Part shown: one piece after another, positions 28,363 to 54,117 of the stretch
Numbering within the stretch: position 1 is the first letter of the stretch
Layout: each line of letters starts with the position of its first letter
NCBI GenBank assembly: GCA_934183165.1
Contig: CAKPRZ010000001.1
Location: forward strand, 119,833 to 183,832
Direction of reading: 5' to 3'
Origin: an uncultured Bacilli bacterium
GTDB lineage: Bacteria > Bacillota_I > Bacilli_A > RF39 > UBA660
Length of the DNA stretch: 64,000 nt
Notes under the pieces: model-generated
Seen by the model: the letters and a program-made list of their open reading frames with translations, nothing else
What the model was told of the DNA's origin: nothing
Databases searched by the model: none
Made by a program: the position numbers and the translations under genes

Positions 28363-28379
28363 CTATTATCACACTCCAA

Positions 28380-30335: not shown

Positions 30336-31603
30336 TTAATTACCTCCTCGCAATTAGAAGCATTTTTATCAAAATAACTAGAATCAATCCAGTTAATCAT
30401 TACGCTAACTAAAAGAGGTATAAAGAATAATGCAACAGCAGCAACTGCACGCTTAATTGCTTTAGATGTTGCTTTTTTCATAGCATCTTGATCTTGTGAA
30501 ATAACAGCTTGTCCAAAGTCTACAGACATTAATATAATCAATAATATAGGTGCACCTATTCTTACCCATTTTAAGACAAGTTGAATTACTGCTTTTAAAT
30601 CTTCATCTATTAAGTGACCACAATTAATAACAGTTGTCCCAGGATTATAAGCAGTAATAGTTGCTGATTTTGTAATATTCTTATAAAGATTTTTGGCACT
30701 TGTAGCATTTCTTGTAGCTTCCTTTTTTTGTTCCTTTGTTAATTCAGTAGATGTATTTACAATTTGTTGATAATGATTAAGTGCTTCATTTAATTGATTA
30801 AGTTTCTGTTGTGTTTTTTCATTATTATTATCGACTAAAAAAGCACAATACTTAGGATAATTTTGGTCTCCTATTTTTGTATAGTAATTACTTGCAATAG
30901 TATTATACATAGCATTGATTTTTGCTATTTCTATTGCTGCTGATGTACCATTAACATTGTTTTTTTTAGACAATTGATCTATACTAGTATTAATTTTTTT
31001 TGAAATATCCTTATTATTAGAATCCTTAACAGTATATCTTAATTCAAAATTACCATTATTTACTACGTTTAATAAATTAGAACCTCCAGCAGAGCATGAT
31101 TTTAATGTTTTATCATCACCAATTTCTAAGGGAGTATATATTTTTGCTTTATATTTATTATCAGACATTTTTACACTTGCATCAGAAACATTAAAATAGA
31201 CTTCCCCGTCTGCTCTATGATTTGTAGCTACTGAAAAAGTAGAATTGTTATCCCTATTTAAGTAAAGCTTAGAAGGACAATAAAATGTTTTTACACTACT
31301 ATCATAAACAGTTAAAGAAGAAGGCGAATCATGACATTCACCCCTAGTGAAAGGCATGTTTATAGCATCCGAATGTAAATATCCTAAAGAACATGCCGCA
31401 ACAGCCTCACCATTATCATAAAGCCATAACGATAACACTTTACCATTATCATACTGATATATTTCCCACTTTGTATCAGACATAGGAATAGCAGTTTTAT
31501 ATACACACTCACCCACTTTAGTTTTAGCAAACACCTCTTTATTAAAAGCTAAAAAGCTAACCATAAATACAAAAATCAACACCAAAGCTTTCTTTAATTT
31601 CAT
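30332..31603 (-). CDS. Secreted protein with C-terminal two-TM VirB2/pilin-like membrane domain (paralogous to 32915..33277)
   Basis: Signal peptide (AFNKEVFA), about 330-aa extracytoplasmic region. C-terminus: LKWVRIGAPILLIILMSVDFGQAVISQDQDAMKKATSKAIKRAVAAVALFFIPLLVSVMINW, which aligns with the 120-aa ORF. Confidence 0.55.
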   Translation of the reverse strand: MKLKKALVLIFVFMVSFLAFNKEVFAKTKVGECVYKTAIPMSDTKWEIYQYDNGKVLSLWLYDNGEAVAACSLGYLHSDAINMPFTRGECHDSPSSLTVYDSSVKTFYCPSKLYLNRDNNSTFSVATNHRADGEVYFNVSDASVKMSDNKYKAKIYTPLEIGDDKTLKSCSAGGSNLLNVVNNGNFELRYTVKDSNNKDISKKINTSIDQLSKKNNVNGTSAAIEIAKINAMYNTIASNYYTKIGDQNYPKYCAFLVDNNNEKTQQKLNQLNEALNHYQQIVNTSTELTKEQKKEATRNATSAKNLYKNITKSATITAYNPGTTVINCGHLIDEDLKAVIQLVLKWVRIGAPILLIILMSVDFGQAVISQDQDAMKKATSKAIKRAVAAVALFFIPLLVSVMINWIDSSYFDKNASNCEEVIK

Positions 31604-31652
31604 AAAAAACCTCTCCCAACTATTTATCTACTAATATCAGTATAACATAAAA

Positions 31653-31686
31653 ATAACAATAGAAAAAGTAATTTCTATTGTTATTT
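31653..31686 (-). terminator. Intra-cluster hairpin (possible attenuator or partial terminator)
   Basis: aataacaatagaaa-aagtaa-tttctattgttatt, then a T-rich tract on the minus strand, lying between the 32823..31696 gene and the 31603 gene. Confidence 0.35.
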
Positions 31687-31695
31687 TATGTTTTA

Positions 31696-32823
31696 TTATT
31701 TAATTAAATATGGATCAGTTTCAGTACCAGTTCCACCAGCAAATATTACATTCTTGTTAAGATTAGTAACTAGTCTAGCTGTTTTTAAACTTGATAATTT
31801 TGATGATGTAGAATTATTATAAATACCATAACCTATATAACTTTTTTCTGATGAAGTTGTTAATAACCAAAAACTTCTATTATACTTTAATAAATAATTA
31901 TAATTACTACAATTATAACTATCCAACCTTTTACAATTAGTATCTAAACTTGCATTAATAAAATCATATACAGTCAACAAACTAAGAGGTTCATTTTGCA
32001 ATATATTTCTACATTCTACACTGCCATCGTTCTTTGTCTCACTTAATTTTCTACTTCCAACGCAAATATCTTTAAAAACTATTTTTTCTTTTACTATATC
32101 AGAAAGTGTACTTGAATTATAATAGTCAGAAATATTTCTTCTAATAATACTCTTATAATAATCATTTATACCAGCATTTTCATTCTTAGTATTATTATAT
32201 CTATCATCCCAAACACTACTTAATCTAGTCTTTTTGTCATTTTCTTGTATAATTTCTAAACTGTAATCACTATTAATTTTTACTATACGCCACAAAAATT
32301 CATCTAATTTTATAAAATTATTAACATAATCTCCTCTAAATACATAAACAGTTTCTTTCCCTTTAGTTTTAGTCGAGTATTGTTCTTTTTTATATAAGCC
32401 ATCATCCTTTGATACTACCTTACTGATTAATTCTTCATACAAATAAGTAGTAGTATATTTATCACCACAATTTAAATATGGTGAATAATTGTAATAATCT
32501 CCCGATTTAGTAACAATTACTTTACCACTACATGCTACATTCTTATCTTTCTGGTATTTGGATAAATCTTTAATATAACCTTCTTCTTTTAATAAAGAAG
32601 CATCAACCTCAACTTCATCATTATCATTAAGTGGCAATGCATCTTTTTTGTTTGCATAATATTTTCTTGCACCAGAAACCAATTTAGATTCTATTTCTGA
32701 ATAACTTAATGAACTGTTTTTAATCATTCCAACAATCAATACTATTATAACTATCAATATAATTGCACCAATACCAATTCCAAAACTTATAAGCATTTTT
32801 TTTGCTTTTTCATCAATCTGCAT
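31696..32823 (-). CDS. Bitopic T4SS-associated protein (N-terminal TM, about 340-aa external domain); candidate VirB8/TcpC-position component
   Basis: The start moves to the ATG at 32823, 6 nt after GGAGG (MQIDEK...). Single TM ISFGIGIGAIILIVIIVLIVGMI. No recognisable catalytic motif. C-terminal GGTGTETDPYLIK. Confidence 0.4.
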   Translation of the reverse strand: MQIDEKAKKMLISFGIGIGAIILIVIIVLIVGMIKNSSLSYSEIESKLVSGARKYYANKKDALPLNDNDEVEVDASLLKEEGYIKDLSKYQKDKNVACSGKVIVTKSGDYYNYSPYLNCGDKYTTTYLYEELISKVVSKDDGLYKKEQYSTKTKGKETVYVFRGDYVNNFIKLDEFLWRIVKINSDYSLEIIQENDKKTRLSSVWDDRYNNTKNENAGINDYYKSIIRRNISDYYNSSTLSDIVKEKIVFKDICVGSRKLSETKNDGSVECRNILQNEPLSLLTVYDFINASLDTNCKRLDSYNCSNYNYLLKYNRSFWLLTTSSEKSYIGYGIYNNSTSSKLSSLKTARLVTNLNKNVIFAGGTGTETDPYLIK

Positions 32824-32914
32824 GTTAACCTCCATAATTATTATCAATAATTATATGATATCTCAAGTTTTATGTTTAATCAAGAAATATTAAAAAAAAA
32901 AGACTAATGAAATT

Positions 32915-33277
32915 TTATGAGTCCTCATTAGCATCATTCCAACAAGCAAGCCAGTTGTTGTTACCTCTTTCTTGTCCTTCACCAGCTTCCGCGTTAGAAT
33001 CACCTGTTTTACCAAGCCAACTGAATACGACAGTAACAAGAGTAGTAACAAAGAATACAGCTACTGCCATAATTGCTCTTTTAATTAATTTACCTGTTGC
33101 TCCTTTAATTTCTTTATCATCTTGTGACATAACAGCTTTACCTAAGTCAATAGTTCCAAACAAAATCAAAAGAATTGGAATACCTATTTGAATTACAGGA
33201 AAAACACCTTTTCTTATAAACTTAACTACTGGTAAAAGCCCCCCACAGTTATCCATAATTTGAAATAAATCTAACAT
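32915..33277 (-). CDS. Small two-TM VirB2/TrbC-like (pilin-topology) T4SS protein
   Basis: 120 aa with two helices separated by a short loop: GIPILLILFGTIDLGKAVMSQDDKEIKGATGKLIKRAIMAVAVFFVTTLVTVVFSWL. Homologous to the C-terminus of 30332..31603. RBS GGAGGAA. Confidence 0.45.
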   Translation of the reverse strand: MLDLFQIMDNCGGLLPVVKFIRKGVFPVIQIGIPILLILFGTIDLGKAVMSQDDKEIKGATGKLIKRAIMAVAVFFVTTLVTVVFSWLGKTGDSNAEAGEGQERGNNNWLACWNDANEDS

Positions 33278-33347
33278 TTTTAATTCCTCCTAAATCTACA
33301 ATAAATATATCAATATTTAACATTAATGTCAATATTTATTGAGTACA

Positions 33348-34310
33348 TTATTTTCTCCTAACAAGACCTAATCTTGCTAAAAGGTTTATTATGCTATCTT
33401 GTCTACTACGATCATCAAAAGGTGGTATAACATCAAATAATCTTGAACCACATTCTTTTTCAAATTCTCTAATATCACTTTTAGTTAAACAACATTTATT
33501 CAAAACAATCTTTTTTCCAGCTATTCTTGAAAAAATCATCCTGTTTTTCATCATAAGTTTATTCATCTTTATTAATGATGGTTCAACTAAATATAATACA
33601 TCAGTACATAAATCTGGTTCAGCATCATTCAAATCAACTAATACTACCTGTGAATTTATTTTTAATAATAAACCAGATAATCCAGTTTTATTAGTTGATA
33701 GCATTTCTTTATCATTAAAGTATAAAAAATCTTTTTTATTAACTTCAACTGCAGTTGCACTTATTTTCTGATTATTAACAAGTTCTTTATACAACATATA
33801 AGTAAGTGTTGTAGCACCTGCTCCTTCAGTAACATTTTTTATACCTATTACTATTTTCATTTGTCCAGAATTACCTGTATTACTTGGTGCATTGCCTTGC
33901 ATTACCGGTACTACTGGAGGTGGTGCAGCATCTATTTGATGAAGATGTGCAACATCTTTATATGAATTAGGGTGTTGTAGTAAATATAAAACTCCTTCCG
34001 AGTTAGTAGTAAAGTTATAAAATCCCATTGAGATTAATTTAGATAAAAAATAACTACTAGCCACCTCTGTTGAGGAAGGAATAATTAATATTATTTTATC
34101 AACAGGTAATCCAATTGATAATTTTTGATAAGTTAAAATATTAGTATAGTCTTTTAATGCTGTAACATCGATAATCATGCGTGAAAAAAAGAAGTTAGAA
34201 AAATTAGCTATAATCTGTTCAACATCAAATTCACCATGAATAGATTTTATAACTTCAACATTTAAACTATTGGTAATATTATCCTGTTGATTAGATATTA
34301 TAACATTCAT
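33348..34310 (-). CDS. TadZ/CpaE-like protein: N-terminal pseudo-receiver-like domain plus MinD/ParA-fold domain with a degenerate Walker A
   Basis: The C-terminal domain begins KIVIGIKNVTEGAGATTLTYML in place of the deviant Walker A KGGxGKTT, so the P-loop lysine is lost. Compare the canonical TSMKGGVGKTTT in the locus-2 homolog at 52638..53429. Confidence 0.5.
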   Translation of the reverse strand: MNVIISNQQDNITNSLNVEVIKSIHGEFDVEQIIANFSNFFFSRMIIDVTALKDYTNILTYQKLSIGLPVDKIILIIPSSTEVASSYFLSKLISMGFYNFTTNSEGVLYLLQHPNSYKDVAHLHQIDAAPPPVVPVMQGNAPSNTGNSGQMKIVIGIKNVTEGAGATTLTYMLYKELVNNQKISATAVEVNKKDFLYFNDKEMLSTNKTGLSGLLLKINSQVVLVDLNDAEPDLCTDVLYLVEPSLIKMNKLMMKNRMIFSRIAGKKIVLNKCCLTKSDIREFEKECGSRLFDVIPPFDDRSRQDSIINLLARLGLVRRK

Positions 34311-34334
34311 TTTCTTCCCTCTTTCTTCTTTTTA

Positions 34335-34811
34335 TTAAGGTGCTACTGCACCACCAACTAATACATTAGAATAAGTGTCCTCGCCACTATATCCATTATT
34401 GCAGTTTGCTATTCCAAGACCTCCAAGATCTTTTACATAGTTTCCCGTTTCAATCGTTTTTGTCTCGCCACTAACAGGAATTTTAGGGTTAAATGCTTTA
34501 CCAAATATATTTCTATCCATTTGCATATAAACAATAACTTTTACAGTGAACCCGATTCGTTCACTACCTCTATAAACCTCTTTGTAGCAAGCTTTGATAT
34601 CTCTTCCACTATATACGCTGCCCTTACCGACCATGTAATTAGCAAGTGTGTCTTTATCTACGCCCTCATTCTGTTCGATATAATTAATCATATCATTTTT
34701 TAATCTAAAAGTTTGCCCATAGCTTATGAAAAAGGCTACCATAATAATAAATATTAATATTATTCCGGCAGCTAAACCCATAAGTAAGGCTCCACCCGTG
34801 GCCTCTTTCAT
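34335..34811 (-). CDS. Pilin-like / TadE-TadF-like pseudopilin with MKEATGG leader
   Basis: N-terminus MKEATGGALLMGLAAGIILIFIIMVAFFI (short polar leader plus hydrophobic helix), 158 aa. Shares its first 6 residues with the adjacent 61-aa pilin candidate. Confidence 0.45.
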   Translation of the reverse strand: MKEATGGALLMGLAAGIILIFIIMVAFFISYGQTFRLKNDMINYIEQNEGVDKDTLANYMVGKGSVYSGRDIKACYKEVYRGSERIGFTVKVIVYMQMDRNIFGKAFNPKIPVSGETKTIETGNYVKDLGGLGIANCNNGYSGEDTYSNVLVGGAVAP

Positions 34812-34826
34812 CTTATCACCTTTTAA

Positions 34827-35012
34827 TTACTTAATTAAACTATAATCAATATATGTAGTACTTCCAATATTTCTAACTTCAATATTATTAACTTCTTTTT
34901 GAATTTTGTTGTTAATTAAAGGCCATATAACTGTTGTTCCTAAAGCTAAAACAGCTATAATACCTACAATAACAACGATAGTCATTGTCATATCTCCAGT
35001 CGCTTCTTTCAT
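34827..35012 (-). CDS. Flp-type major pilin candidate (61 aa)
   Basis: MKEATGDMTMTIVVIVGIIAVLALGTT..: pilin size and topology, strong RBS AAGGGAGAG, preceded by a 120-nt intergenic region. Confidence 0.45.
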   Translation of the reverse strand: MKEATGDMTMTIVVIVGIIAVLALGTTVIWPLINNKIQKEVNNIEVRNIGSTTYIDYSLIK

Positions 35013-35133
35013 AAAATATTACTCTCCCTTCTACTATTACATTATTATTATAACCAAATTTTTTTTATTTTACAATAGTTTTGTGTTAACTTTACACTAT
35101 TAAAAAAGTGAACATTACAGTCCACATTAATAA

Positions 35134-35922
35134 TTAAAAACTAAACATAAATAACATTGAGAACATAAGTACAAGTAACATACCTCCACCAGTTACAACT
35201 AGCATTATCATAGTTCTTCTTTCCATCCAATCAAGTCTGGATTTATACTTAACTTCTCTTGCTTTATTTTGAAGTGATGAAACTGATTTAGAAAAAAGTA
35301 CTAATTGTTGATGTTTATTCTCTTGTGCTCCTAAACTAAGTCTATATAAAAGTCTCATCATACGCATTGAATCTTTTACTGGATATTCAATAGCAAAATC
35401 CATATATGGTTGAATTGATGAATCACCTGCATCTATTTTAGCAACCATCTCTCTTAACCCTTTTTTAAATATTTCTGGAGCTTCTTCAATAGATCTTGAT
35501 AACGCTACTGGAACAGTATAATTTTGACAAAGAATTTCAAGTCCCTTTAAATAATATGGTAACATTTGATCTACTTTTTGCATCTCTTGTTTATAATATT
35601 TTTTTAAGGAAAAATATGGAATTTTATATACTATAAAAGTACCACCTAATATTTTTAAAATACTCCATACACTCATATTAGTTATATAAAATAATGTCAT
35701 TAAAAGAAGAACATATCCTGAAAGTCTTATTCTTTTACTATATAAAATATTAGGATCAGCATCAGATCCATATTTAGCATTAACTAAGAAATTATAATCT
35801 TTTTCTCTTAAATAGTTAACACTTGAGTCACTTGATATAATAAATTTTTGTAATGTTGTTTTATTATTATAAACAACTATAAATAATATTAAACCTAATA
35901 CAATAAAAATTTCTATATTCAT
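35134..35922 (-). CDS. tadC: TadC-like inner-membrane platform protein (GspF/T2SSF family)
   Basis: Polytopic 262-aa protein; start overlaps the stop of the upstream TadB-like gene; position and size as in tad loci. Confidence 0.55.
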   Translation of the reverse strand: MNIEIFIVLGLILFIVVYNNKTTLQKFIISSDSSVNYLREKDYNFLVNAKYGSDADPNILYSKRIRLSGYVLLLMTLFYITNMSVWSILKILGGTFIVYKIPYFSLKKYYKQEMQKVDQMLPYYLKGLEILCQNYTVPVALSRSIEEAPEIFKKGLREMVAKIDAGDSSIQPYMDFAIEYPVKDSMRMMRLLYRLSLGAQENKHQQLVLFSKSVSSLQNKAREVKYKSRLDWMERRTMIMLVVTGGGMLLVLMFSMLFMFSF

Positions 35923-36815
35923 TATTCAGCCCCCACATTCTCATTATAATATTTTTCACCAGAAAGTAAGAAATATGAATTAATCCATAATAATGCATGA
36001 AGGGCAACCTTTACAATTATATTATCCTGAATTTCAATATATTTATCAACTCCCAAGATTCCTTGAATAAGTACAACCATAAAATATAAAACTAATCCAA
36101 AGGTAATAAATTTACTATGGAAATTTTTTCTATCAATTCTATCCGCATATACTCCTTCAACTAATTGGTCAATATCAAGTAACATATTTTCTAATATATC
36201 ATTCGAATCTCTAGAACCTTCTTTAGTTATCTGTAAAAATAATTGATGCATATTTTTAGACATATAAAAGTCATATTTTGAGTTCATATAATTAATTGAT
36301 TCATGGACATCCCCATTTTGATACGCTAAATCTATCATCATTTTAACATCTGATTTAACAGGATCTTCTAATACTCCAGAATTATATACTCCTTCTAATG
36401 CTTTTACAAAACTTTGAGTAATTTGAAATTCCATAATAGTATTAGTTGTATATGTCTGAATCTGTTCAAATATAAATTCACTATATAGTCTTTTACATCT
36501 TAAATATGACAAATATGGAATTAATATAAATACAAACAAGCAATATACTATTGAAACAACAATGTTATAGAAATATAAATAAGTAATTAAGAATGTACCA
36601 CCTATAAATATTATAAATTGTATTAAATATTCTTTAGGTGTCATCTCCATTCCCATATCTTTTATTTTCTTACGCATCATTTTAAATGAATATGGTGCAT
36701 ATTTTTCATATAGATTAGTACCAGTATTATTGATAAATTTATAGAATTTTTCACCACTTCTTAAATAGTTAACAACTATAAAAAGTAATATTGCACCTAC
36801 TATTAAGTACTCCAT
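35922..36815 (-). CDS. tadB: TadB-like inner-membrane platform protein (GspF/T2SSF family)
   Basis: Polytopic 297-aa protein immediately downstream of the CpaF-like ATPase. Confidence 0.55.
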   Translation of the reverse strand: MEYLIVGAILLFIVVNYLRSGEKFYKFINNTGTNLYEKYAPYSFKMMRKKIKDMGMEMTPKEYLIQFIIFIGGTFLITYLYFYNIVVSIVYCLFVFILIPYLSYLRCKRLYSEFIFEQIQTYTTNTIMEFQITQSFVKALEGVYNSGVLEDPVKSDVKMMIDLAYQNGDVHESINYMNSKYDFYMSKNMHQLFLQITKEGSRDSNDILENMLLDIDQLVEGVYADRIDRKNFHSKFITFGLVLYFMVVLIQGILGVDKYIEIQDNIIVKVALHALLWINSYFLLSGEKYYNENVGAE

Positions 36816-38995: not shown

Positions 38996-39478
38996 CTAAT
39001 CCTTTGTTTCTAGTATTGATGTTAATTTAGTTGTTATGATCGTATTATCGTCGCCTGTTTTTCTACCTCTAAATAACTTTCTTACCCAAGAATAATTTTG
39101 TTTTGCTTTAACCTTTAAACTTACTTTAGCTGGACACTCTTGAACTTTATAAATTTCAACAGTATAATCTGTGTTCTGAGCTGCAACTTCAGAAAATCTT
39201 CTAGCAAAGTTTTCAACAAATTTTTCTGTTACTATTCTTATTGTACCAGGTTGTCCTGAATCACAATCAATAGTATTTATCTTATCCACCTCATCTTGAG
39301 TTAAGCCTATTTGATAAGCAACATCATCAACTGAATCTAGCATAGCGTTTTGTGTTGCTTCTTTTAAAAGATAATAATCATGTTCATCTTTTACACTAAT
39401 ATTACCGAAAAGCATAAGAAGTGCAGCAGCAACTATGCCTAATATCAAGAATAAATATCCCCACATTGACTCTGACAT
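38996..39478 (-). CDS. Membrane-anchored pseudopilin-like protein (TadG/TadE-position)
   Basis: The start moves to the ATG at 39478 (GGGGG RBS; the ORF-track start is a TTG). N-terminal hydrophobic helix WGYLFLILGIVAAALLMLF, then about 130 soluble aa. Confidence 0.4.
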   Translation of the reverse strand: MSESMWGYLFLILGIVAAALLMLFGNISVKDEHDYYLLKEATQNAMLDSVDDVAYQIGLTQDEVDKINTIDCDSGQPGTIRIVTEKFVENFARRFSEVAAQNTDYTVEIYKVQECPAKVSLKVKAKQNYSWVRKLFRGRKTGDDNTIITTKLTSILETKD

Positions 39479-39480: not shown

Positions 39481-42363
39481 TTAATCTGCCCCCTTCCAAT
39501 AATCTTCATTAACTCTTGTAAAGATTGATGTATTATTATCTACATAATCACTCCTAAAGAATGACCCATTTGTTTCATATTTACCAATAAAGTCAGCATA
39601 TACATTTTTACCTGAATCTTTTGTATCTTGCTTTATTCTTTTAATATTATCAGCACTCAAATTTATTACATATATAGGCTGTTCATTATAATCATTATCG
39701 TCTACTGTATATTTTTGTTCGTAACCTTTCCAATTAGTACCTGCGTTACGCTTTGGAAAAGCATTAAACTTAAATGTAGGATTATCACTTTCACCTAAAG
39801 CTATTGGTCTATAAGTATAACCTTCACCAATTTTAGTAGTAGTACATGTATTTATACAAGAATCCTCAGATTTATATCCAGAATTTTCATAATTAATATG
39901 ACACCAATCTTTTATTTGTGTTGTTTGATTTGGTTTAAATTTATTTTCACAAAGTTCTTTTCCATCTTGATTACTACAATCTGATACACAGGAATCATAA
40001 CTTCCATATCCAGCTGTATCTTTATCCCAATTTTCTCTACAATATTTTTTGATGCCTGCATAATTAGCCGGTTTATATAAAACCTTACATGTTTTACTAC
40101 CAACTGGTGTCTCTTTATTTCTTATTATTACTGGACAACTAACTGTCACATTATTTCCACTAGCAGTAGTATATGTTACACTTCCATCAACTTTCTTTGT
40201 TTCGTTGTGGTTAAGAGTAATTATATCTGAATGTTCACTATTACAATTAGTAAGAGTTCTACCATTAAATTTACAACTAACACCTAAATCACTTCTATTA
40301 GTAACGTTATATTTTACTTTATATTTTTTATCTTCTATTTTTTCAAAAGATATATTACATTCTGCCGTCTCATCTTTTGTTTCATTTAAATAGTAACACT
40401 TGTTTTCCTTAATACAACTATCATTTTTTAAACTTTCTTTTGTAACTTTAACTTCTACAGGAACTTTTGTTTTTAATTTACCATCGGCATTTGTAACTTT
40501 CTTAATATAATATCCATAATAGAAAGTTTCAGCTTTGCCATCATTATTACAAGTTAAATCATCTGTACTAGAATTCCAAACAACTTCTTGTGTATTATCC
40601 TTCAAATGATAACACATTTGTGGTAATTCCCATGATGATGTGTTAGTCGATTCAAAAGTTGCTTTTAAATTTTTATTTAAATTTTCTCTAACATCCCCAT
40701 AGTTATGAATAGTTCCACTATTAACTGATTTTCTTGTGGTATCTGAAGTATTATCAATTTTCTTATGAAGTGATTTAGTATCATTCCCATTTACTGTCAT
40801 TTTGATTGTATCGGAATCATCCCATTTACATTTATAGTTTTCGTCTGTAGTACTTGTAGTCAATGTTTGAAAATTTTTAAGAGCCTTTTCAGGAACAGAA
40901 TTACCTTTTCCTCTATTGCTTCTTTTTAACGCTGCGTATTCAAATTCATATTTCTTTGTATTAAAAGTTATTGTACAAGTTTTAATACCGTTTGTATCAA
41001 CAAAGTAATTAAATCCGCCTAAACTGTTTATAAAAACCTTAGGTAATCCACTCGAATAATTTAAAGTTAATTTTTCAGTACATTCCCTTTTATAATATTC
41101 GGAAGGAATACATGTATAACTTTTTACAGTATTTATTGTTTGGCAAGTAGCACTATTAGTATTAGTACAAGTATTAGCAGAACAAGTAGAACCCCTCGGA
41201 TCAGAATATCCACAATGTTCAATACAAAACTTTTTTTTAGATGAATCAGTACTTTCTGGATCATTTTCACAATAGTTTTCAGCACATTTTAACCTAGCAT
41301 TAGTATCTCTAATTGTACCACTACAAGCAGAATTGCAACTCTGGATAATATCGGTTAATTTAAAAATTGTCATTCCTATTGCACGATTACTCCAAATATT
41401 AGCTTGATTGATTTTTTCTGCAGGTCGCAAAATATTACTATCACTACCTCCAACAATAAGGTTTCCATTTACATATACCGTACCATTTATATACATAGCC
41501 TCTGCATATCTAGCAAATACACCTGTATGATTATAAAATTGATTTAATTCAAATACCGTTCCAACATAATTTCTGTTTTCTTCAAATCCATTTGGTCTAC
41601 TACTTGCATTATTAGTAGATATTGATCCTAAAATTTCAGCAGTGAAAAAATACCTTTTCGGATTAGCTTTAATTTCATTCAATTCATTAGAAGTCAACTG
41701 ATATTTATTTTTTATTTTTTCATAACCATTAAATGTTTTTATAATACTATTATTTTTTAGATATTCTTTTCTCTTACTTTTATCATAACCATTCCCTATC
41801 CATTCTAGAAAATTAGAATTATAAATAATAGGATCTCTATTATTAGCCCATCTTAATTGATTAGTATTTCCATTTTTAAGTTTCACCAACTCATTCAATA
41901 GTGTATAATAATTGGTCAGACCTTTATACGTTGATGAGGTTAAACTAAACCTAGTACTATCTGGCCTTTTCCCATTTTTTTTATCAGAAATAACATTACT
42001 ACTTCTAGGGTCGGAAAACCTTTGTGGTTTAGTTTGCTTACCTTTTGAATCATATCCATAATCCCATGGTTTTCTTTCTTGAGTATTACTGCAAGATGAT
42101 GATGGATTTCCACAAGCTGTGTCATATCTCCAAAAATCATGACTTTGTCCTACTTTTTTGGCTGTTGTAGAGTTAACATATTTGTACAAAGTAAATCTTA
42201 AACCCATACTATTATAACAATACCCAGTACCTAGACAACTATCTGCCCAATTACCAGTACCTGCTGTATCAACAGGTTCTATTTCTATAGCTGCATAAAC
42301 AGAATTAATTCCAAATACTGTGGCAAATATTACTGTCAAAAGAAATGCTTTTAATGATTTCAC
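39481..42363 (-). CDS. Giant secreted cysteine-rich protein (960 aa); candidate pilus-tip adhesin / surface adhesin
   Basis: Cleavable signal peptide (INSVYAAIE). Dozens of Cys in CxxxC / C-x-n-C modules (e.g. CNSACSGTIRDTNARLKCAENYCEND...CIEHCGY). Asn/Thr/Lys-rich, no TM anchor. Confidence 0.6.
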   Translation of the reverse strand: MKSLKAFLLTVIFATVFGINSVYAAIEIEPVDTAGTGNWADSCLGTGYCYNSMGLRFTLYKYVNSTTAKKVGQSHDFWRYDTACGNPSSSCSNTQERKPWDYGYDSKGKQTKPQRFSDPRSSNVISDKKNGKRPDSTRFSLTSSTYKGLTNYYTLLNELVKLKNGNTNQLRWANNRDPIIYNSNFLEWIGNGYDKSKRKEYLKNNSIIKTFNGYEKIKNKYQLTSNELNEIKANPKRYFFTAEILGSISTNNASSRPNGFEENRNYVGTVFELNQFYNHTGVFARYAEAMYINGTVYVNGNLIVGGSDSNILRPAEKINQANIWSNRAIGMTIFKLTDIIQSCNSACSGTIRDTNARLKCAENYCENDPESTDSSKKKFCIEHCGYSDPRGSTCSANTCTNTNSATCQTINTVKSYTCIPSEYYKRECTEKLTLNYSSGLPKVFINSLGGFNYFVDTNGIKTCTITFNTKKYEFEYAALKRSNRGKGNSVPEKALKNFQTLTTSTTDENYKCKWDDSDTIKMTVNGNDTKSLHKKIDNTSDTTRKSVNSGTIHNYGDVRENLNKNLKATFESTNTSSWELPQMCYHLKDNTQEVVWNSSTDDLTCNNDGKAETFYYGYYIKKVTNADGKLKTKVPVEVKVTKESLKNDSCIKENKCYYLNETKDETAECNISFEKIEDKKYKVKYNVTNRSDLGVSCKFNGRTLTNCNSEHSDIITLNHNETKKVDGSVTYTTASGNNVTVSCPVIIRNKETPVGSKTCKVLYKPANYAGIKKYCRENWDKDTAGYGSYDSCVSDCSNQDGKELCENKFKPNQTTQIKDWCHINYENSGYKSEDSCINTCTTTKIGEGYTYRPIALGESDNPTFKFNAFPKRNAGTNWKGYEQKYTVDDNDYNEQPIYVINLSADNIKRIKQDTKDSGKNVYADFIGKYETNGSFFRSDYVDNNTSIFTRVNEDYWKGAD

Positions 42364-42373
42364 ACGATCACCT

Positions 42374-42994
42374 CTAAATATCTATTTTCTTCTTCTTAAA
42401 TTTTTTATAAACTAATATAACAACTACTATTCCAACAACAGAAGAAAAACTAATTAATATTATATTTTTATTTTCTTTAATAACTTCCAAGAATGTTTTT
42501 TTCTTTTTCACTTCTTTTTGCTCGCTAGATTTTAATTTTTCTGTAAATTCTTCTAACGTCATTCTATTAATGTTATACCATTTCTGACATAAAACACTAT
42601 CACTATATTGTTTACATATATCACTATTATAATATTGATTATAAGAAGGAGCTTTTATCCTAATAGTTCTTAAAACTTCTTCATTGCAATTTGTCTTATC
42701 ACTTGCGGTTATATAATATCTGTAACTACTACCTGGAAATAGTTGCCCTACAAATGATTTGTTTTTATTGTATATTTCAGAAAAATCATCAATGATTATT
42801 TTTTCATTTAAATTATATACATATAAATTAAACACTCCAACTTTTTCATTAAATTCATAAGAAGTTTCTACTTTTTTTGCTAGTTCCTTTAATTCTTTTA
42901 GCTCTTTATCAGTACACTCTGCTGCTTTAACATCAATAACACATAGAAAAGTGCAAAACACAAAAAAACAAATATTAAGAATTTTATTCTTCAT
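42374..42994 (-). CDS. Secreted Cys-containing protein with a C-terminal TM anchor and poly-Lys tail (first gene of the locus)
   Basis: Signal peptide (CVIDVKAAE), six Cys, C-terminal helix plus KKFKKKK; RBS AGGAGAG. Confidence 0.5.
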   Translation of the reverse strand: MKNKILNICFFVFCTFLCVIDVKAAECTDKELKELKELAKKVETSYEFNEKVGVFNLYVYNLNEKIIIDDFSEIYNKNKSFVGQLFPGSSYRYYITASDKTNCNEEVLRTIRIKAPSYNQYYNSDICKQYSDSVLCQKWYNINRMTLEEFTEKLKSSEQKEVKKKKTFLEVIKENKNIILISFSSVVGIVVVILVYKKFKKKKIDI

Positions 42995-43007
42995 ATCAAA
43001 CTCTCCT

Positions 43008-43047
43008 ACTATTATAATTAATATAATTATATCCCAGAATTTGTAAA
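43008..43047 (-). promoter_or_regulatory. Candidate promoter for the 42994->20300 locus (TTTACA ... TATATT/TATAAT region)
   Basis: On the minus strand: ttttacaaattctgggatataattatattaattataat, followed by the RBS of the first gene. Divergent from the thioredoxin-like gene. Confidence 0.3.
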
Positions 43048-43133
43048 ATTACAATATTATATTTACATGTAATACTTTTTTAATTATTGTATATTTTAAT
43101 TAAATGTGTTAGTATGTTTTAGAGGTGTTAGGT

Positions 43134-43544
43134 ATGAAAAATACAATTAAATTATTTGTTCTATTAAGCTTTGTAATGCTTATCACAGGATGTGGGATAA
43201 ATCCTATTAAATCAATTAGTTATAGTGATTTAGAAAAAAAATTAAATAATAAAGATACTTTTATATTAGAAGTAGTTCAAGATGGATGTCATAATTGTGA
43301 ATCATTTACTCCAAAATTTAAAAAAATATTAAATAAAAATAAAATTGATGCTTATTCAGTTAACTTAACAAGTTTATCTAAAGAAGACACTAATAAGATT
43401 GATAATCTTTATAAAGTTAGTGGTACTCCTACTGTTATTTTTATAACTAAAGGTGAAGAAAAATCAATTTCTCAAAGAATTGTTGGAGATCGTAGTGATG
43501 ATTTTATAATAGAAAAGTTAAAGATTGCTGGATATATTAAATAA
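43134..43544 (+). CDS. Thioredoxin-fold lipoprotein (extracytoplasmic thiol-disulfide oxidoreductase, CxxC = CHNC)
   Basis: Lipobox LITGCG; active-site-like DGCHNCESF; SGTPT cis-Pro region typical of the thioredoxin fold. The start moves to the ATG at 43134 (the ORF-track start is a GTG). Confidence 0.6.
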   Translation: MKNTIKLFVLLSFVMLITGCGINPIKSISYSDLEKKLNNKDTFILEVVQDGCHNCESFTPKFKKILNKNKIDAYSVNLTSLSKEDTNKIDNLYKVSGTPTVIFITKGEEKSISQRIVGDRSDDFIIEKLKIAGYIK

Positions 43545-49547: not shown

Positions 49548-50252
49548 CTAACTAAAATAACTAATTATTACTGGGGATAATATAAGAAGTAACAGTAATG
49601 GAATAAAAAATATTACTGAAACAACTGACACCTTTAAAGGAATTTTATTAATAACAGCTTTAGTTTTTGTTATTTGTTTATCCCTTATGTAATCTACTTG
49701 ATTATGCATACTTTCAATTATACTATTACCAAAAATATTTGATTGTGAAATATTTAAAATAATATTATTAATAGTTTCTGATGGAATTCTACCTTTTAAG
49801 TCTTCTAAAGCCTCATTAAGATCTTTTCCATATTTAACTTTACTTAATGCTATTTTAAATTCATTTGATAGTTCATTATCAATATTATTAGCCGTCAAAT
49901 CAAGAGAAGTTTTTAAATTTCTACCTGTTTCAAGTGCTAAAGTTAAAACTTCAAAAAAGTACATTGCTTCTTTATCTAACCTATCGGCTCTTCTATCTAC
50001 TTTTAAGTCAATAAATATTTTTGGTAAAAAGATATAATATGCAACTGTTACTATTGGTGCAATTATATACCCAAGTTCCAAGAAGTATAATAACATAAAA
50101 AATAGTAAAATGGAAGAAACAAGTCTTATATTTAAGAAAATAACTGCATCATAACTATTCTCATATCCTAAAAGGTTAATTCTTTTTTGATACTTATCAA
50201 TAATAGCCTTGGAATAAATTCTATAGCTTACGCCTTTTCTATTCTTTTTCAT
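49548..50252 (-). CDS. tadC: TadC-like platform protein (second tad locus)
   Basis: Polytopic 234-aa protein downstream of the TadB-like gene. Confidence 0.55.
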   Translation of the reverse strand: MKKNRKGVSYRIYSKAIIDKYQKRINLLGYENSYDAVIFLNIRLVSSILLFFMLLYFLELGYIIAPIVTVAYYIFLPKIFIDLKVDRRADRLDKEAMYFFEVLTLALETGRNLKTSLDLTANNIDNELSNEFKIALSKVKYGKDLNEALEDLKGRIPSETINNIILNISQSNIFGNSIIESMHNQVDYIRDKQITKTKAVINKIPLKVSVVSVIFFIPLLLLLILSPVIISYFS

Positions 50253-50255
50253 AAC

Positions 50256-51260
50256 TTACTCCTTCATTTTTATTATCTTTCTAATTATTAATATATAAGA
50301 TATATATATTAGTATCATAAAACTTAATATAATTCTTCCAACACTTGTTTTAAATAATGGACTAAAATAGCTTGGATTTAAAAGGACAATTATACTAGTT
50401 AAAAGAATTGGTACAGCTACTAAAATTCTATATATAGCATTAGCTGATGATGATAAAGCTCCAAGCTCTTCTTTTAATTTTTTTCTAGTAAAAGCACTAC
50501 GTTCTACTGATGCAAAAACTTGAACAATATTACCTCCTGTTTTATTTAAAACAGATAGTGAGGTTGATATATATTTTGCTTCTTCAGTATTAACTCTTCT
50601 AGCAAATCTTTCAAAAACTAAGTCCATATCAAGACCAAAACTGATATCAATATACATCTTTCTAAATTCATCTGATATTGGTCCATCCAATTCATTTGAT
50701 ACCATATATATAGCTTGCATAATACTAAGGCCAGATTTAAAAGCATTATTCATGATTATAATGGCATCTAACATAGCTTTTTCAATTTTAGCTTTTCTTA
50801 TTTTTCTTTTAGATATCCAATATATATCTGGTACAAAGAATCCTACTAAAAATACTGTCAGTACTTGTGATATTGAAATACTTTGATATCTTAAAACGTC
50901 CGATAAAACGATCAAAATACTACATAATATTGCCCAAATAAATTTAGTTGAGACATAATCCATTGGATCTTCTCTATTTATTTTTGAATAATCTAACATA
51001 TTTTCATATTTTTTACTATACTTCTTTAAGGAAGCACTTTTAACTAAAAATTTAGAAAATTTTCTTTTTAATCCTACATAAAATCTATGAAGTTTTTCTA
51101 AGAAGGGAGTCGTATTATCATTAATAGGTTCAACACAATACTTTTTAAATCTATTAGTAGTTGTAGTAGATGTATTAACACGATAAAACCATACTATAAG
51201 CCACATAAGTGATATTATTAATACCATTTGAACAATTAAGGTATTGATATCTATATTCAT
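50256..51260 (-). CDS. tadB: TadB-like platform protein (second tad locus)
   Basis: Polytopic 334-aa protein downstream of the CpaF-like ATPase. Confidence 0.55.
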   Translation of the reverse strand: MNIDINTLIVQMVLIISLMWLIVWFYRVNTSTTTTNRFKKYCVEPINDNTTPFLEKLHRFYVGLKRKFSKFLVKSASLKKYSKKYENMLDYSKINREDPMDYVSTKFIWAILCSILIVLSDVLRYQSISISQVLTVFLVGFFVPDIYWISKRKIRKAKIEKAMLDAIIIMNNAFKSGLSIMQAIYMVSNELDGPISDEFRKMYIDISFGLDMDLVFERFARRVNTEEAKYISTSLSVLNKTGGNIVQVFASVERSAFTRKKLKEELGALSSSANAIYRILVAVPILLTSIIVLLNPSYFSPLFKTSVGRIILSFMILIYISYILIIRKIIKMKE

Positions 51261-51280
51261 ACGTACCCTCCTTTTTTATT

Positions 51281-52660
51281 TTATTTTTCTTCTTTCTTGT
51301 TTTTCTTATTTTTTTCTATATTTTCAAATATATCATCTATTGAATCAATTCCACGATTTTTAATTTTTTTATAGACTTGTGGAATATAATTATATAATAC
51401 AAATTCTCCGTTTACTTCACCACTATCAGTTAATCCATTTTGATTAAAAGCAAAAATCTCTCGTAAGTTAATATTTTCACCATCAAAACCAACTATTTCT
51501 GATATTGAAGTTACTTTTCTTCTACCATCACTTAATCTTTCGACATTGACAACAATATCCAAAGCCTTATCAATATATCCTCTAATTGCCTTTAAAGGTA
51601 TATCCATCTCACTCATAAGTATCATTGTTTCAAGACGATTTAAAGCATCAGCCGCTGAGTTGGCATGAAGTGTAGTTAAAGATCCGTCATGTCCAGTATT
51701 CATTGCTTGTAACATATCAAAAGCTTCTTTTCCACGAACTTCACCAACAATTATTCTATCTGGTCTCATACGTAATGAGTTTCTAACCAAATCACGAATT
51801 GTAACTTCACCATCGTTTTCATAATTAACATTTCTAGTTTCTAGTGAAATTACATGTTGTTGTTTTAATCTTAGTTCAACTGCATCTTCAATAGTTATAA
51901 TTCGTTCATTTTCTCCAATGAAATTAGATAAAATATTAAGTAAAGTTGTTTTACCACTACCAGTACCACCACAAACAATAATATTTAATTTTCCTTCAAC
52001 ACAAGCTTGTAAAAACCTTGCCATATAAGGTGTTAATGTACCATTACCTATTAAACTATCGATACTATCAATACTTTTTTTAAATTTACGAATAGTTAAA
52101 ACAGGTCCTTTAAGTGAAAGTGGTGGAATTATAGCATTAATTCTCGAACCATCTGGCAAGTGTGAGTCAACCATAGGATTAGCTGAGTCAATAGTACGCC
52201 CTAATGGTTGAACAATTCTTTGAATAGTTCTAATTATATGTTCATCATTAATAAAAGATATTGTTTCATCTTTTAAAAGTTGTCCATCAACTTCTATATA
52301 TATTTCATTAGGACTATTAACCATTATTTCTGTAACACTATCATCATCTAGAAGTTCAGTTATTGGTCCATATCCATTAATTTCATTTTCTATTAAATTG
52401 AACAAATGATTTCTCTCTAAATTAGTTAAATCATAACCATCAGTAATAACATCTATCTCTTCATTGATATACTGTGTAAGTAACTTATCGTCAGGTATTT
52501 GATTATCAATTAATTCCTGAATAATACTATCTCTAAATTTATCTAATAGTTTTTTATCTTTAAACACATCATAATCATTTAAATCTGTACTTCTATTATT
52601 TTCACGCTCATCAATAATTTCAAATTCTTCTAACCAACTATTCTTCTTCATTTTCATCAA
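51281..52660 (-). CDS. tadA: CpaF/TadA-family secretion ATPase (second tad locus)
   Basis: Walker [20 protein letters not shown] Asp box, GspE-family architecture. Confidence 0.85.
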
Positions 52661-53429
52661 CTCCTTTTTTATTATCTTCTAGGAGCCTAGTCGCAAGAGA
52701 TAAAATACTCTTATATGTTTTTCCACTCTTAATCTTAGAAAATGCTTTAAGTAAGCTTCCTTCCATAACATACATATCGTAATTTCTAGTATACATAGAA
52801 TCTGGAATTATATAATCTATGTTATACCCTATTACTTCTCTTATATCATAATTAGAAAAATAATCTTTTCTATCATCAGCACTATTATTTAACGCTACAA
52901 CTAAATTATTTGTTTTTATATTTTTACAAATAGAGATAAATGTCCTAGTTCCTTTTAATGAAATAGCATCATTAGTAAATATATCTAGTATTGTATCGGA
53001 ATAATCAAAAGCAAGCATACTATATACATTTAAAGAATGATTAGTATCAACTAGAATTACATCATAATAATTAGCTACGCTTTCCATTAATATTTTTAAA
53101 CATTTTTTATCTACTTTACCAGCTTGTCTAGGATCTTTAGGAGAGGCCAAAAGGTCTATTTGATCTTCTATATGACATATATATTCTCCATTATTAAGTC
53201 CTTTATAACGGTTATTATTCATATCATCACATATATTATAGATACTGTTTTTTACATCAGCTTTTAGCATAAATGCCAAACTACCTGAATAAAGATCTAA
53301 ATCGATCATCAATACACTTTTTCCTAAGTTTTTATACATAGCAGCAAGTAATAAGACGGTTGTAGTTTTTCCTACTCCACCCTTCATTGAAGTCACTGTG
53401 ATAATTTTACCCTTTTTAATCTTTGCCAT
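52638..53429 (-). CDS. CpaE/TadZ-like MinD/ParA-family ATPase with a canonical deviant Walker A
   Basis: VTSMKGGVGKTTTVLLLA; 263 aa, no receiver-like N-domain. Confidence 0.7.
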   Translation of the reverse strand: MAKIKKGKIITVTSMKGGVGKTTTVLLLAAMYKNLGKSVLMIDLDLYSGSLAFMLKADVKNSIYNICDDMNNNRYKGLNNGEYICHIEDQIDLLASPKDPRQAGKVDKKCLKILMESVANYYDVILVDTNHSLNVYSMLAFDYSDTILDIFTNDAISLKGTRTFISICKNIKTNNLVVALNNSADDRKDYFSNYDIREVIGYNIDYIIPDSMYTRNYDMYVMEGSLLKAFSKIKSGKTYKSILSLATRLLEDNKKGVDENEEE

Positions 53430-53444
53430 ATTATCCCTCTTTTA

Positions 53445-53756
53445 TTAAGATACTTTTACTTTTTCTACAATTTCGTAATAATCTCTACCAATAATTTTTC
53501 CAAAAAAGCATTTAACTTTTTTTGTTATTTTTAATTCATTATCAACAATTTCTATTTGAACATCAGGTTCATTTTTATTAATAATTTCTTTTGCCTTTTC
53601 AACACTTTCATCTTCCTTTATAGTTGTGATAATATTTTCTAATCTATTTCTTTCATAATTTATATTGACTGTATCAACAACATATGCCAAAAAAAGTAAT
53701 AACACAGGCATTATAATAACAAATATAACTAATGCTTGAGCTTTATTGTTTAACAT
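53445..53756 (-). CDS. TadE-like pseudopilin
   Basis: MLNNKAQALVIFVIIMPVLLLFLAYVVD: TadE N-terminal motif (basic residue, then A-x-x-E/I-F hydrophobic helix). Confidence 0.55.
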   Translation of the reverse strand: MLNNKAQALVIFVIIMPVLLLFLAYVVDTVNINYERNRLENIITTIKEDESVEKAKEIINKNEPDVQIEIVDNELKITKKVKCFFGKIIGRDYYEIVEKVKVS

Positions 53757-54117
53757 AATAAACCACTCTTTCTACTTTAGCATTATATGGATACCCAATA
53801 ATTAAATTCAATCCTGGAGTTATTGTTTTTATTTCTTTTGATAATTTTATTGTTACATAATTAGTCTCATTGTTAAATGATAATTCTGTTTTAATATTTT
53901 TATCATTAATGCTTTTTTGAACATTTGGATATAACTCATCTATTTCGATAGTGTTTTTTAATGCATCAACTGCATCTGATAATTTATTTTCTAGTTCACT
54001 TTTAGTAATCATAATAGTACCAAAATCAATAATTGCAAACAATATCATAATAAGAACTGGTAATATTAAAACAAATTCTATTAAAGCTTGAGCCTTTTCA
54101 TTCCTCACAGATACCAT
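53743..54117 (-). CDS. TadE-like pseudopilin
   Basis: RNEKAQALIEFVLILPVLIMILFAIIDFG: classic TadE/TadF N-terminus. Confidence 0.6.
   Translation of the reverse strand: MVSVRNEKAQALIEFVLILPVLIMILFAIIDFGTIMITKSELENKLSDAVDALKNTIEIDELYPNVQKSINDKNIKTELSFNNETNYVTIKLSKEIKTITPGLNLIIGYPYNAKVERVVYYVKQ

Follow-up and report, generated by a model that had tools for sequence, protein, structure and literature searches.

Cysteine-rich secreted protein and divergent thioredoxin-fold lipoprotein at the front of a type IV secretion-type gene cluster in an uncultured Bacilli bacterium

Why should a low-GC gut bacterium export a 960-aa protein with 33 cysteines, and why should a gene for a thioredoxin-fold lipoprotein be divergently placed only 139 nt from the gene pair to which that protein belongs? 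These questions are raised by a 64,000-nt stretch of contig CAKPRZ010000001.1 (assembly GCA_934183165.1, positions 119,833 to 183,832; the whole stretch is called the window hereafter) from an uncultured Bacilli bacterium, whose lineage is probably that of a gut anaerobe. In the reading that we consider reasonably probable, the large protein, here called the giant, would be an extracytoplasmic, disulfide-stabilised component of a chromosomal apparatus that joins a type IV secretion system (T4SS) to a VirB11 (Tad-like) module, and the thioredoxin would be its folding helper. The features on which this reading turns are as follows.

39481..42363, minus strand: the giant, 960 aa with 33 cysteines, secreted and anchorless (open reading frame (ORF) list, composition, family searches).
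42292..42363, minus strand: signal peptide of the giant, aa 1-24, VYA|A (sequence reading and hydropathy script; N-termini alike family-wide).
42374..42994, minus strand: p206, first gene of the cluster, 206 aa (alignment of 17 homologues).
42995..43133, no strand: AT-rich divergent intergenic region of 139 nt from the thioredoxin gene to p206, with ribosome-binding sites on both sides.
43134..43544, plus strand: thioredoxin-fold lipoprotein, 136 aa, PedC-like subfamily (PF00085, LITGC lipobox, CHNC, GTPT cis-Pro loop).

Linkage of the thioredoxin-fold lipoprotein to the giant

The giant starts with GTG, and its ribosome-binding site, GAGGTGA, lies directly past the stop codon of the upstream gene; gaps of 10 nt to p206 and 2 nt to the DUF5411 gene separate it from its neighbours. 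By eye and by hydropathy script alike, the N-terminus of the giant (MKSLKAFLLTVIFATVFGINSVYA|AIE) is laid out in n, h and c parts as a Sec signal peptide would be; the same script found no second hydrophobic segment, and no LPXTG motif is present. A first-pass annotation of this DNA had described a 960-aa ORF with a cleavable signal peptide and no anchor, with which our coordinates (39481..42363) and hydropathy profile agree; it had also placed the giant at the head of its operon, a position that belongs to p206 (42374..42994), the giant coming second. Cysteine makes up 3.44% of the giant versus a mean of 1.30% in 59 non-nested window ORFs of at least 100 aa, i.e. 2.6 times as much (binomial P ~8e-7). 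The cysteine richness noted in the first pass was therefore recovered, as were CxxxC spacings (four CxxxC and two CxxxxC, the rest being longer), whereas the CxxC arrays were not: a motif count over the full 960 aa gave zero. The abundance of cysteine had moreover been called unusual for an anaerobe-type Firmicute, which holds in part. Exclusion of cysteine was described for aerobic Firmicutes, in which 70% of exported proteins are without cysteine and the mean per exoprotein is ~0.5, and it is weaker in anaerobic Firmicutes, with 33% (PMC2823432). The 33 cysteines of the giant are far above this mean of ~0.5, which is a figure for aerobic, not anaerobic, Firmicutes.

The neighbouring lipoprotein proved to be much as first described, with a thioredoxin fold, a CHNC motif and a divergent position ~140 nt away (139 nt by our count). 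An upstream GTG at 43125 would give a protein of 139 aa, and the real start is probably the ATG at 43134, which gives 136 aa as in relatives and is preceded by the ribosome-binding site AGAGGTG. The match to PF00085 scored 33.4-33.5 bits (cut-off 23.5), and all 14 homologues have their CxxC and cis-Pro at the places of CHNC and the GTPT loop. The lipobox, ...VMLITG|C (ITGC), is kept in 12 of these 14, and the other two have an uncleaved transmembrane (TM) anchor. The mature domain of ~113 aa is monomer-sized and has no DsbC-like dimerisation domain. Only 24 clusters among 5.8 billion belong to this subfamily, and a precomputed PF20207 (PedC-like) hit is listed for all 24, including P0111, which is 100% identical to the window protein; PF20207 was absent from the output of a local hmmscan run with that sequence at E up to 0.1. 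TIGR01295, the PedC/BrcD equivalog, was the second-best NCBIfam match at 35.7 bits, below its cut-off of 120.

The best solved-structure matches were a-domains of protein disulfide isomerases (PDI), not ResA, TlpA or DsbA, and Pfam and NCBIfam returned no DSBA, Thioredoxin_4, AhpC-TSA or Redoxin-type match. PF13728 (TrbB/TraF) was likewise not matched by the window protein, and among its homologues P0122 and P0124 alone list it (precomputed). Three class identities were set aside. The first-pass annotation had allowed for a ResA/TlpA factor in a ccm context; a ResA/TlpA/CcmG identity was rejected, with no such domain match and no ccm, resBC or ccdA context seen, and no ccm, res or ccdA context was seen at any thioredoxin locus. 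The DsbA/BdbD/MdbA class does not fit a mature protein of ~113 aa with no DSBA match and no DsbB or VKOR among the window ORFs scanned. A bacteriocin-maturation identity of the PedC/BrcD kind does not fit the sub-cut-off score, and no bacteriocin, immunity or ABC-transporter gene lies nearby.

Linkage was followed in 22 loci from a genome scan with the giant sub-family alignment, each subjected to ORF and BLAST analysis. Twenty of the 22 are contigs of metagenome-assembled genomes labelled uncultured Bacilli or Tenericutes (Hadza gut, rabbit, goat and others), and the remaining two are labelled Clostridia and Methanobacteriaceae. The whole cluster is syntenic across the retrieved loci. A thioredoxin gene was found in 18 loci; in 17 it directly adjoins the p206-giant pair, divergent and directly upstream of it (L001-L012, L022, L023, L027-L029), and in one (L014) it lies one gene (1.7 kb) away. 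Three of these loci, L027-L029, were looked up blind from thioredoxin homologues (65%, 62% and 49% identical), and in all three the gene is divergent to a p206-like gene, which is followed by a giant of 908-950 aa, DUF5411, RcpC and the ATPase. The thioredoxin gene was present in 15 of 15 informative loci whose giant is a full-length homologue, and the divergent pairing is kept even where identity between giants is 27-30%. The gene on the far flank of the thioredoxin gene, on the other hand, differs between genomes. Because the pairing survives divergence of the giant, the subfamily is as rare as the locus and the far flank varies, these comparisons strongly suggest that the lipoprotein is specifically linked to the giant; the earlier idea of a thioredoxin dedicated to this protein is thus borne out as to linkage.

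A 501-aa membrane protein, convergent with the thioredoxin gene, was considered as its redox partner and rejected because it does not stand beside the thioredoxin gene in L028, L029 or L005-L012. Sigma-70-like hexamers numbered 35 in a promoter/terminator scan of 38900-43700 versus 34.2 expected in shuffled sequence, and we therefore make no claim for a shared divergent promoter. A different, conserved membrane protein of ~525-540 aa (N-terminus ...RKPYAF(F/L)IKHFKL...) is directly upstream of p206 in six loci without an adjacent thioredoxin gene (L015, L016, L020, L021, L024 and L026), and in L014 this protein (L014:750-2345) stands between the thioredoxin gene and p206.

The active site in the thioredoxin family is C-x-H-C in most lineages (CPHC, CSHC, CTHC, CRHC), with CSAC in L014 and CHNC in the window. 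DsbA, MdbA and PDI all have a His before the second Cys, a feature tied to their oxidising potential, and TsdA, which lacks this His, was argued not to be primarily an oxidiser (PMC9974433). The family-level motif favours a role as oxidase or isomerase, with the direction uncertain for the CHNC variant. It is conceivable, at a clearly lower probability than the reading given at the outset, that the enzyme acts as a reductase or isomerase and not as a net oxidase, as do ResA, CcmG, DsbC and TrbB, while the disulfides form spontaneously or via an enzyme encoded elsewhere. The window motif, being CHNC and neither CPHC nor CGHC, would suit such a role, as would the argument on TsdA, the need of a client with at least 24 cysteines for isomerisation, the lack of a reoxidising partner among the window ORFs scanned, and the fact that TrbB, the closest functional precedent, is an isomerase. 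This is countered by C-x-H-C, including CPHC, in most family members, by the lack of an AhpC/TSA or Redoxin match in Pfam and of CcdA or DsbD nearby, and by a mature domain of 113 aa, the size of a monomer, that lacks a DsbC-like dimerisation domain.

Conserved cysteines, architecture and strain variability of the giant

A word-seeded search of 5.8 billion clusters returned six relatives of the giant, five at 71-96% identity and one at 25%, and when 1.84 billion representatives were searched exhaustively with a HMMER profile, 106 family proteins were recovered at E<=1e-3, 40 of them at E<=1e-30; the family size of ~106 refers to clusters at 50% identity. The family is unannotated, and its members come from low-GC gut Bacilli. 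Sequence and profile searches of Pfam, NCBIfam, PHROGs and PDB with the giant gave nothing significant (Filamin, at E 0.042, was the sole Pfam listing at E up to 10), and sequence and profile searches of solved structures with the family gave no match. Among the matches listed, full-length members have 900-1500 aa, 3-4% cysteine and a low-GC-style composition. A simple hydropathy and charge test found a signal-peptide-like N-terminus in 67 of 71 full-length members, and the other four appear to be N-terminally truncated.

Conservation in this family is dominated by cysteine. The mean column identity in an alignment of 83 sequences is 11%, and cysteines account for 18 of the 28 columns with at least 90% conservation. 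Across 79 non-redundant members, 24 cysteine positions, an even number, are 87-99% conserved at 20-30% identity. Pairing was judged by co-variation of cysteine presence across homologues: C584 and C605 are both present in 69 members, both absent in 8 and split in 0. The even count and the strictly paired loss of C584/C605 are the pattern expected for disulfide partners, and point to structural disulfides, presumably in the oxidised state, in an extracellular protein. The first-pass view of a disulfide-rich extracellular protein is in line with this, together with the signal-like N-termini. Its named alternative, that the cysteines are metal ligands of an intracellular domain, was rejected because no conserved His stands alongside the conserved Cys columns in the family alignments; the cysteines are lost pairwise and sit in an exported protein.

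Structure prediction, one of the checks that the first-pass annotation had proposed, was done with AlphaFold2 (AF2). A shallow alignment of 7 sequences was unusable (predicted local distance difference test, pLDDT, 34.6), and the run with 83 sequences (pLDDT 77.7; predicted template modelling score, pTM, 0.59) was used instead. The model predicts Cys-stapled helices, immunoglobulin (Ig)-like beta-sandwiches and a tandem 4-Cys helical repeat, and CxxxC pairs fall on helices in it. In the N-terminal part, it places a beta hairpin past the signal peptide, then a low-confidence stretch (aa 81-183) and an alpha/beta region. From the N-terminus, the parts of the giant are as follows.

41644..42006, minus strand: strain-hypervariable segment, aa 120-240, 31-38% identity between strains, overlapping the low-confidence region of the model.
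41212..41337, minus strand: predicted Cys-stapled helical module 1, aa 343-384, C-x3-C...C-x4-C...C-x3-C, with six cysteines each at least 96% conserved.
40120..41172, minus strand: central beta-rich region, aa 398-748, predicted Ig-like beta-sandwiches, model pLDDT mostly 80-97.
39844..40089, minus strand: predicted tandem 4-Cys helical repeat, aa 759-840, two copies of C-x15-C-x14-16-C-x3-C (model, motif count).
39730..39819, minus strand: C-terminal signature motif, aa 849-878, Y-x-Y-R-P-I...(N)xFPxR.xG.NW.G (family alignments, hhalign).

The co-varying pair C584/C605 falls inside the central beta-rich region, and one of the two copies of the helical repeat is missing in P0006. The signature reads Y-x-YRPI(S/A)L...(N/D)PFPxR.xG.NW.G in family alignments. 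It belongs to the C-terminal domain, the most widespread part of the family, which also ends proteins of 1200-1500 aa.

Between strains, the giant is 71-77% identical, whereas the DUF5411, CpaB-like, ATPase and TadB/C-like proteins are 98-100% and p206 is 96-98% identical. Divergence is mostly in the N-terminal ~600 residues of the giant, and the C-terminal ~360 residues are mostly 85-100% identical. The variable N-terminal half fits a surface recognition head, which could be that of an adhesin. Other variation was noted in and around this protein. The P0001 allele is 96% identical to the window giant overall and just 65% in a block of aa 361-420 (41104-41283), which resembles a patch of local recombination within the Cys-rich loop region that left the Cys positions intact. 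Two further cluster genes, p423 (30332-31603) and the VirB6-like gene (28380-30335), have 32% and 52% identity to L001 next to genes of 98-100%, which suggests several variable surface cassettes (the giant, p423 and the VirB6-like protein) within one cluster. By gene content, the p206-giant module is duplicated in L019, as tandem p206-like and giant-like pairs of 228+627 aa and then 226+611 aa (L019:7866-13049), and in L020, as two pairs of giant-like and DUF5411 genes (L020:8154-12688).

The T4SS/VirB11-module cluster and the place of the giant in it

To what machine would such a protein belong? The first-pass annotation had taken these genes for a Tad pilus operon. They are instead the 5' part of a run of 20 co-directional genes on the minus strand, from 42994 down to 20300 (22.7 kb, largest gap ~120 nt), and since T4SS genes run on to 20300, the 'pilus operon' makes up the front half of a cluster of T4SS type. 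Beyond p206 and the giant, the cluster consists of the following.

38996..39478, minus strand: DUF5411 protein, 160 aa from ATG, with a pilin-like N-terminal helix (PF17424, 112 bits).
38117-38980, minus strand: CpaB/RcpC-like SAF protein (Pfam/NCBIfam scans).
36833-38107, minus strand: VirB11/TadA-type secretion ATPase (T2SSE, 91 bits).
20300..36815, minus strand: remainder of the cluster (Pfam/NCBIfam scans and locus comparison).
31696-32847, minus strand, within this remainder: p383, 383 aa, N-terminally anchored (ten homologues, 35-41% identity).

Past the ATPase come two TadB/C-like membrane proteins, two small MKEATG pilin-like ORFs, a ParA-like protein, a VirB2-like protein (120 aa) and p383, then p423 (with a T4SS_pilin C-terminus), VirB6-like, PrgI-like and p182, and finally VirB4, a SpoIID+M23 hydrolase, p255 and VirD4. 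The best NCBIfam match of the ATPase was VirB11, at 107 bits versus a cut-off of 250, and the SAF protein was sub-threshold for both RcpC (27.6 bits versus 28.8) and TIGR03177 (35 versus 71); the TadB/C-like proteins had no Pfam match. The VirD4-like protein matched T4SS-DNA_transf at 202 bits, the VirB4-like protein matched AAA_10, TraG P-loop and CagE_TrbE_VirB, the hydrolase carries SpoIID and M23 domains, and the PrgI match was weak. Judged by these domain assignments, the cluster holds the core of a Gram-positive conjugative T4SS, namely VirD4, VirB4, VirB6-like and PrgI-like proteins and a cell-wall hydrolase. The one mention of DUF5411 in the searchable literature places it in a predicted secretion operon of Clostridia (PMC9523054). 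A plain Tad/Flp pilus locus was rejected, as no Flp or peptidase_A24 match was obtained in the cluster and the small ORFs start with MKEATG and a helix, not with the Flp motif G/XXXXEY. The remark that Tad loci place tip adhesins where the giant stands has to be dropped too: the cluster is a T4SS/VirB11-module hybrid resembling transfer regions of the B. cereus group, and we know of no convention in canonical Tad loci that puts tip adhesins at such a position.

Next to the giant, p206 has a signal peptide, an ectodomain with four invariant cysteines and, at its C-terminus, a TM anchor that has a basic tail (17 homologues); Pfam, NCBIfam and PHROGs gave chance-level matches alone, PgtP in NCBIfam and phrog_17396 in PHROGs. 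In P0020 and P0033, p206 and the giant are a single polypeptide of ~1,220 aa, in which the p206 TM helix and the signal-like helix of the giant form a hairpin and both ectodomains lie outside. These fusions argue for physical association of the two proteins. All six cysteines of p383 are invariant in its ten homologues, and p383 is likely to be another disulfide-bonded client of the thioredoxin. Invariant cysteines in both p206 and p383 suggest that the thioredoxin may serve several extracytoplasmic machine parts. The giant, p206 and the divergent thioredoxin appear to be a conserved unit at the front of the cluster, and the machine appears to carry its own folding catalyst.

In the scheme that we infer, the giant would be exported by Sec and its signal peptide cut after A24. 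Folding outside the membrane would then give it two helical modules stapled by cysteines, a number of Ig-like beta-sandwiches and its conserved C-terminal domain, and its ~12 conserved disulfides would be introduced or proof-read by the divergently encoded PedC/PDI-like lipoprotein, acting as an oxidase or an isomerase, which probably also serves p206 and p383. The C-terminal domain with YRPI...FPxR..NW may dock the giant to the machine, p206 and the DUF5411 protein being candidate partners, and the exposed, hypervariable N-terminal half would give target or partner recognition as an adhesin or in mating-pair specificity. The cargo of the machine could be DNA or protein.

Several results weigh against this scheme. 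Eight more distant loci (L015-17, L019-21, L024, L026) have no adjacent thioredoxin gene, with giants of 12-38 cysteines. Related loci are not phylogenetically independent. The window motif CHNC has no His at the canonical position, which makes the direction of catalysis, oxidase versus isomerase or reductase, uncertain, and the window ORFs scanned yielded no partner of the DsbB, VKOR, BdbC or CcdA kind. Lastly, fold searches with the giant model returned generic Ig/FN3/PKD-like matches and nothing adhesin-specific.

The last point bears on a second alternative, to which we also give a minor share of belief, that the giant is a structural part of a wall-spanning conduit, a disulfide-rigidified stalk or collar, and a counterpart of the 851-aa protein of plasmid pBMB67 (pXO1-55 family) rather than an exposed adhesin. 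Besides the lack of an adhesin-specific fold match, its fixed place directly upstream of DUF5411, SAF and ATPase genes, here and in pBMB67, the C-terminal motif common to the giant and the plasmid family, and its linkage or fusion to membrane-anchored p206 would all be expected of such a part. The extreme N-terminal strain variability beside identical neighbours would, however, be unusual for a purely structural part, and size and domain content vary widely in the family, from 900 to 1500 aa. What mainly favours an adhesin or specificity role over a purely structural role, if indirectly, is that the C-terminus is conserved and the N-terminus varies like a cassette, as in surface recognition proteins.

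Could the giant instead be cargo, namely an effector, a toxin or a folded substrate expelled by the module of the cluster that resembles Tad and type II secretion systems (T2SS)? It is anchorless, hypervariable as many effectors are, and carries a Sec signal, and Sec signals are also present on two-step substrates such as pertussis toxin and T2SS exoproteins. We think this improbable: some genomes have the giant fused to membrane-anchored p206, its place in the cluster does not change and it is translationally coupled to machine genes (the gaps of 10 and 2 nt), its C-terminal motif is common to a plasmid transfer-region protein, and no toxin-domain match was found. A still poorer candidate is metal binding, to which the CxxxC spacings lend themselves, since such spacings are able to bind metals. 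That the cysteines bind Zn or Fe-S or form other cross-links, with the thioredoxin gene a mere neighbour, is very unlikely: exported cysteines in anaerobes need not be oxidised (PMC2823432) and 33, the total in the window protein, is an odd number, but the conserved core is even (24) with strictly pairwise loss, no conserved His accompanies the Cys columns and no metal-domain Pfam match was seen, the giant is extracytoplasmic, and the thioredoxin linkage is kept while the other flank changes.

Returning to the giant as a disulfide-stabilised machine component, a wider picture can be drawn, which we regard as speculative and rather unlikely to hold in full: a non-mobile chromosomal T4SS/Tad hybrid with a hypervariable, disulfide-rich recognition head and its own minimal PDI-like lipoprotein, operating without a DsbB/VKOR-type partner, would mediate strain-specific exchange of DNA or protein between cells. 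If true, an anaerobic Firmicute would thereby possess a disulfide system outside the cytoplasm that is complete in itself and serves this exchange. Apart from this picture, its hypervariability between strains makes the giant a candidate for setting partner specificity when uncultured gut bacteria exchange material horizontally. The locus would offer a compact genetic test case for enzyme-assisted disulfides in a low-oxygen Firmicute, a group usually held to avoid exported cysteines, and the present account is the first structural and contextual description of a family of ~106 clusters without a Pfam or NCBIfam model.

On mobility, none of the window ORFs that were scanned with Pfam showed a relaxase or an integrase domain, and the same chromosomal neighbours (DAGK, amino oxidase, YebC) surround the cluster in related contigs; the cluster may be a domesticated, non-mobile T4SS. 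The sole tRNA in the window is tRNA-Gly (1058-1131). The two small ORFs of the cluster (34827-35012 and 34335-34811, minus strand) have a common N-terminus, MKEATG, followed by a hydrophobic helix, and DUF5411 proteins across loci start with MKE(S/A)xWG and then a helix; these starts look like pilin-type leaders, in a cluster with no Flp motif or prepilin peptidase. A second, more canonical Tad-like locus lies at 49548..54117 (minus strand), 5 kb upstream of the cluster, with genes for two small TadE-like proteins, one ParA-like protein, an ATPase of CpaF type (T2SSE) and two T2SSF membrane proteins, and is kept in the close relatives L002 and L004. Directly downstream of VirD4, two tandem ORFs on the plus strand (19425-19841 and 19857-20270) resemble the spore-coat protein CotZ, with 9.4% and 8.0% cysteine; with SpoIID here and YunB and YutH in L028, they indicate, by their similarity, a spore-forming lineage.

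Comparison with known systems

In composite gene content, the cluster matches transfer regions of Bacillus cereus-group plasmids (pBMB67/pXO1-like and pAW63/pXO2-like), a match that also counts a ParA-like protein. The tra region of pAW63 has homologues of VirD4, VirB4 and VirB11 (PMC9673590). The nearest plasmid relatives of the VirB4 protein are of the Bacillus thuringiensis pBMB67 type, and identity to pBMB67 is 30% for VirB4 and 33% for VirD4. The pBMB67 transfer region has VirD4, TrbL-like, PrgI and VirB4 proteins and an 851-aa secreted protein, after which come a DUF5411-like protein (134 aa, 26 bits), SAF, an AAA ATPase, a T2SS/type IV pilus (T4P)/T4SS ATPase and two TadB/C-like proteins. 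Differences are also plain: the 851-aa protein has 10 cysteines versus 33 in the giant, no thioredoxin gene and no p206 gene are shown in the pBMB67 region, and pBMB67 carries a MobP3 relaxase, whereas the window cluster is chromosomal with no relaxase among the ORFs scanned.

The 851-aa protein belongs to the pXO1-55 family (PF27438), for which some records say 'conjugal transfer protein' and on which nothing functional was found in the literature, and its C-terminus holds ...FIRRSVNPSNPFPDKVGWNWQGKE... Aligned by hhalign, the two families gave a probability of 84.7% and E 6.7e-6 over 36 columns only, with the same gene position; outside this 36-column motif, the giant and the 851-aa protein are not alignable (blastp E 0.88), and tblastn of the giant against 72,556 plasmids gave no match. 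We read this as a putative docking motif shared by positionally equivalent proteins, short of full-length homology. Motif and gene position would tie the giant family to the uncharacterised conjugal transfer protein of pXO1/pBMB67-type Bacillus plasmids.

As to the enzyme, PedC/BrcD proteins (TIGR01295, PF20207) are also small membrane-tethered thioredoxin-fold proteins of Firmicutes with one locus-encoded, disulfide-containing exported client, which is a peptide there and a 960-aa machine component here. MdbA/VKOR of Actinobacteria and BdbDC of Bacillus, which serve the oxidative folding of pilins and pseudopilins, are housekeeping DsbA-like systems with an inserted helical domain, broad substrates and a known reoxidising partner, while the window thioredoxin has a minimal 113-aa mature domain, is locus-specific and has no partner seen. 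BdbDC is linked to ComGC. MdbA, as a housekeeping oxidoreductase, is needed for pili in Actinobacteria (PMC9974433).

As to the giant itself, a functional analogy, with no sequence or fold similarity detected and no beta-propeller predicted, can be drawn with PilY1/PilC. PilY1/PilC is a large, signal-peptide-bearing, anchorless protein whose gene stands beside minor-pilin-like genes; its C-terminal domain is conserved and serves in docking, and its N-terminal part is variable and adhesive.

The closest functional precedent, by analogy, for the giant and its thioredoxin is the TrbB system of the F plasmid. TrbB is a T4SS-encoded disulfide isomerase with putative clients TraN (22 Cys), TraU (11) and TraH (6) (PMC11315126). 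There too, a conjugation-type T4SS encodes an extracytoplasmic thioredoxin-fold enzyme beside Cys-rich surface parts, although no sequence relationship is detectable between the two systems and the giant is without a TraN Pfam domain. TraN is a mating-pair stabilisation adhesin whose variants set recipient specificity, which would parallel the variable head of the giant. The F system is Gram-negative and periplasmic, and the window enzyme is a monoderm lipoprotein, divergently transcribed at the head of its cluster. The principle is thus already known, and the variant of it proposed here rests on an uncharacterised protein family. If the scheme holds, a Gram-negative principle, that of a machine-encoded isomerase for Cys-rich surface parts, would extend to single-membrane bacteria.

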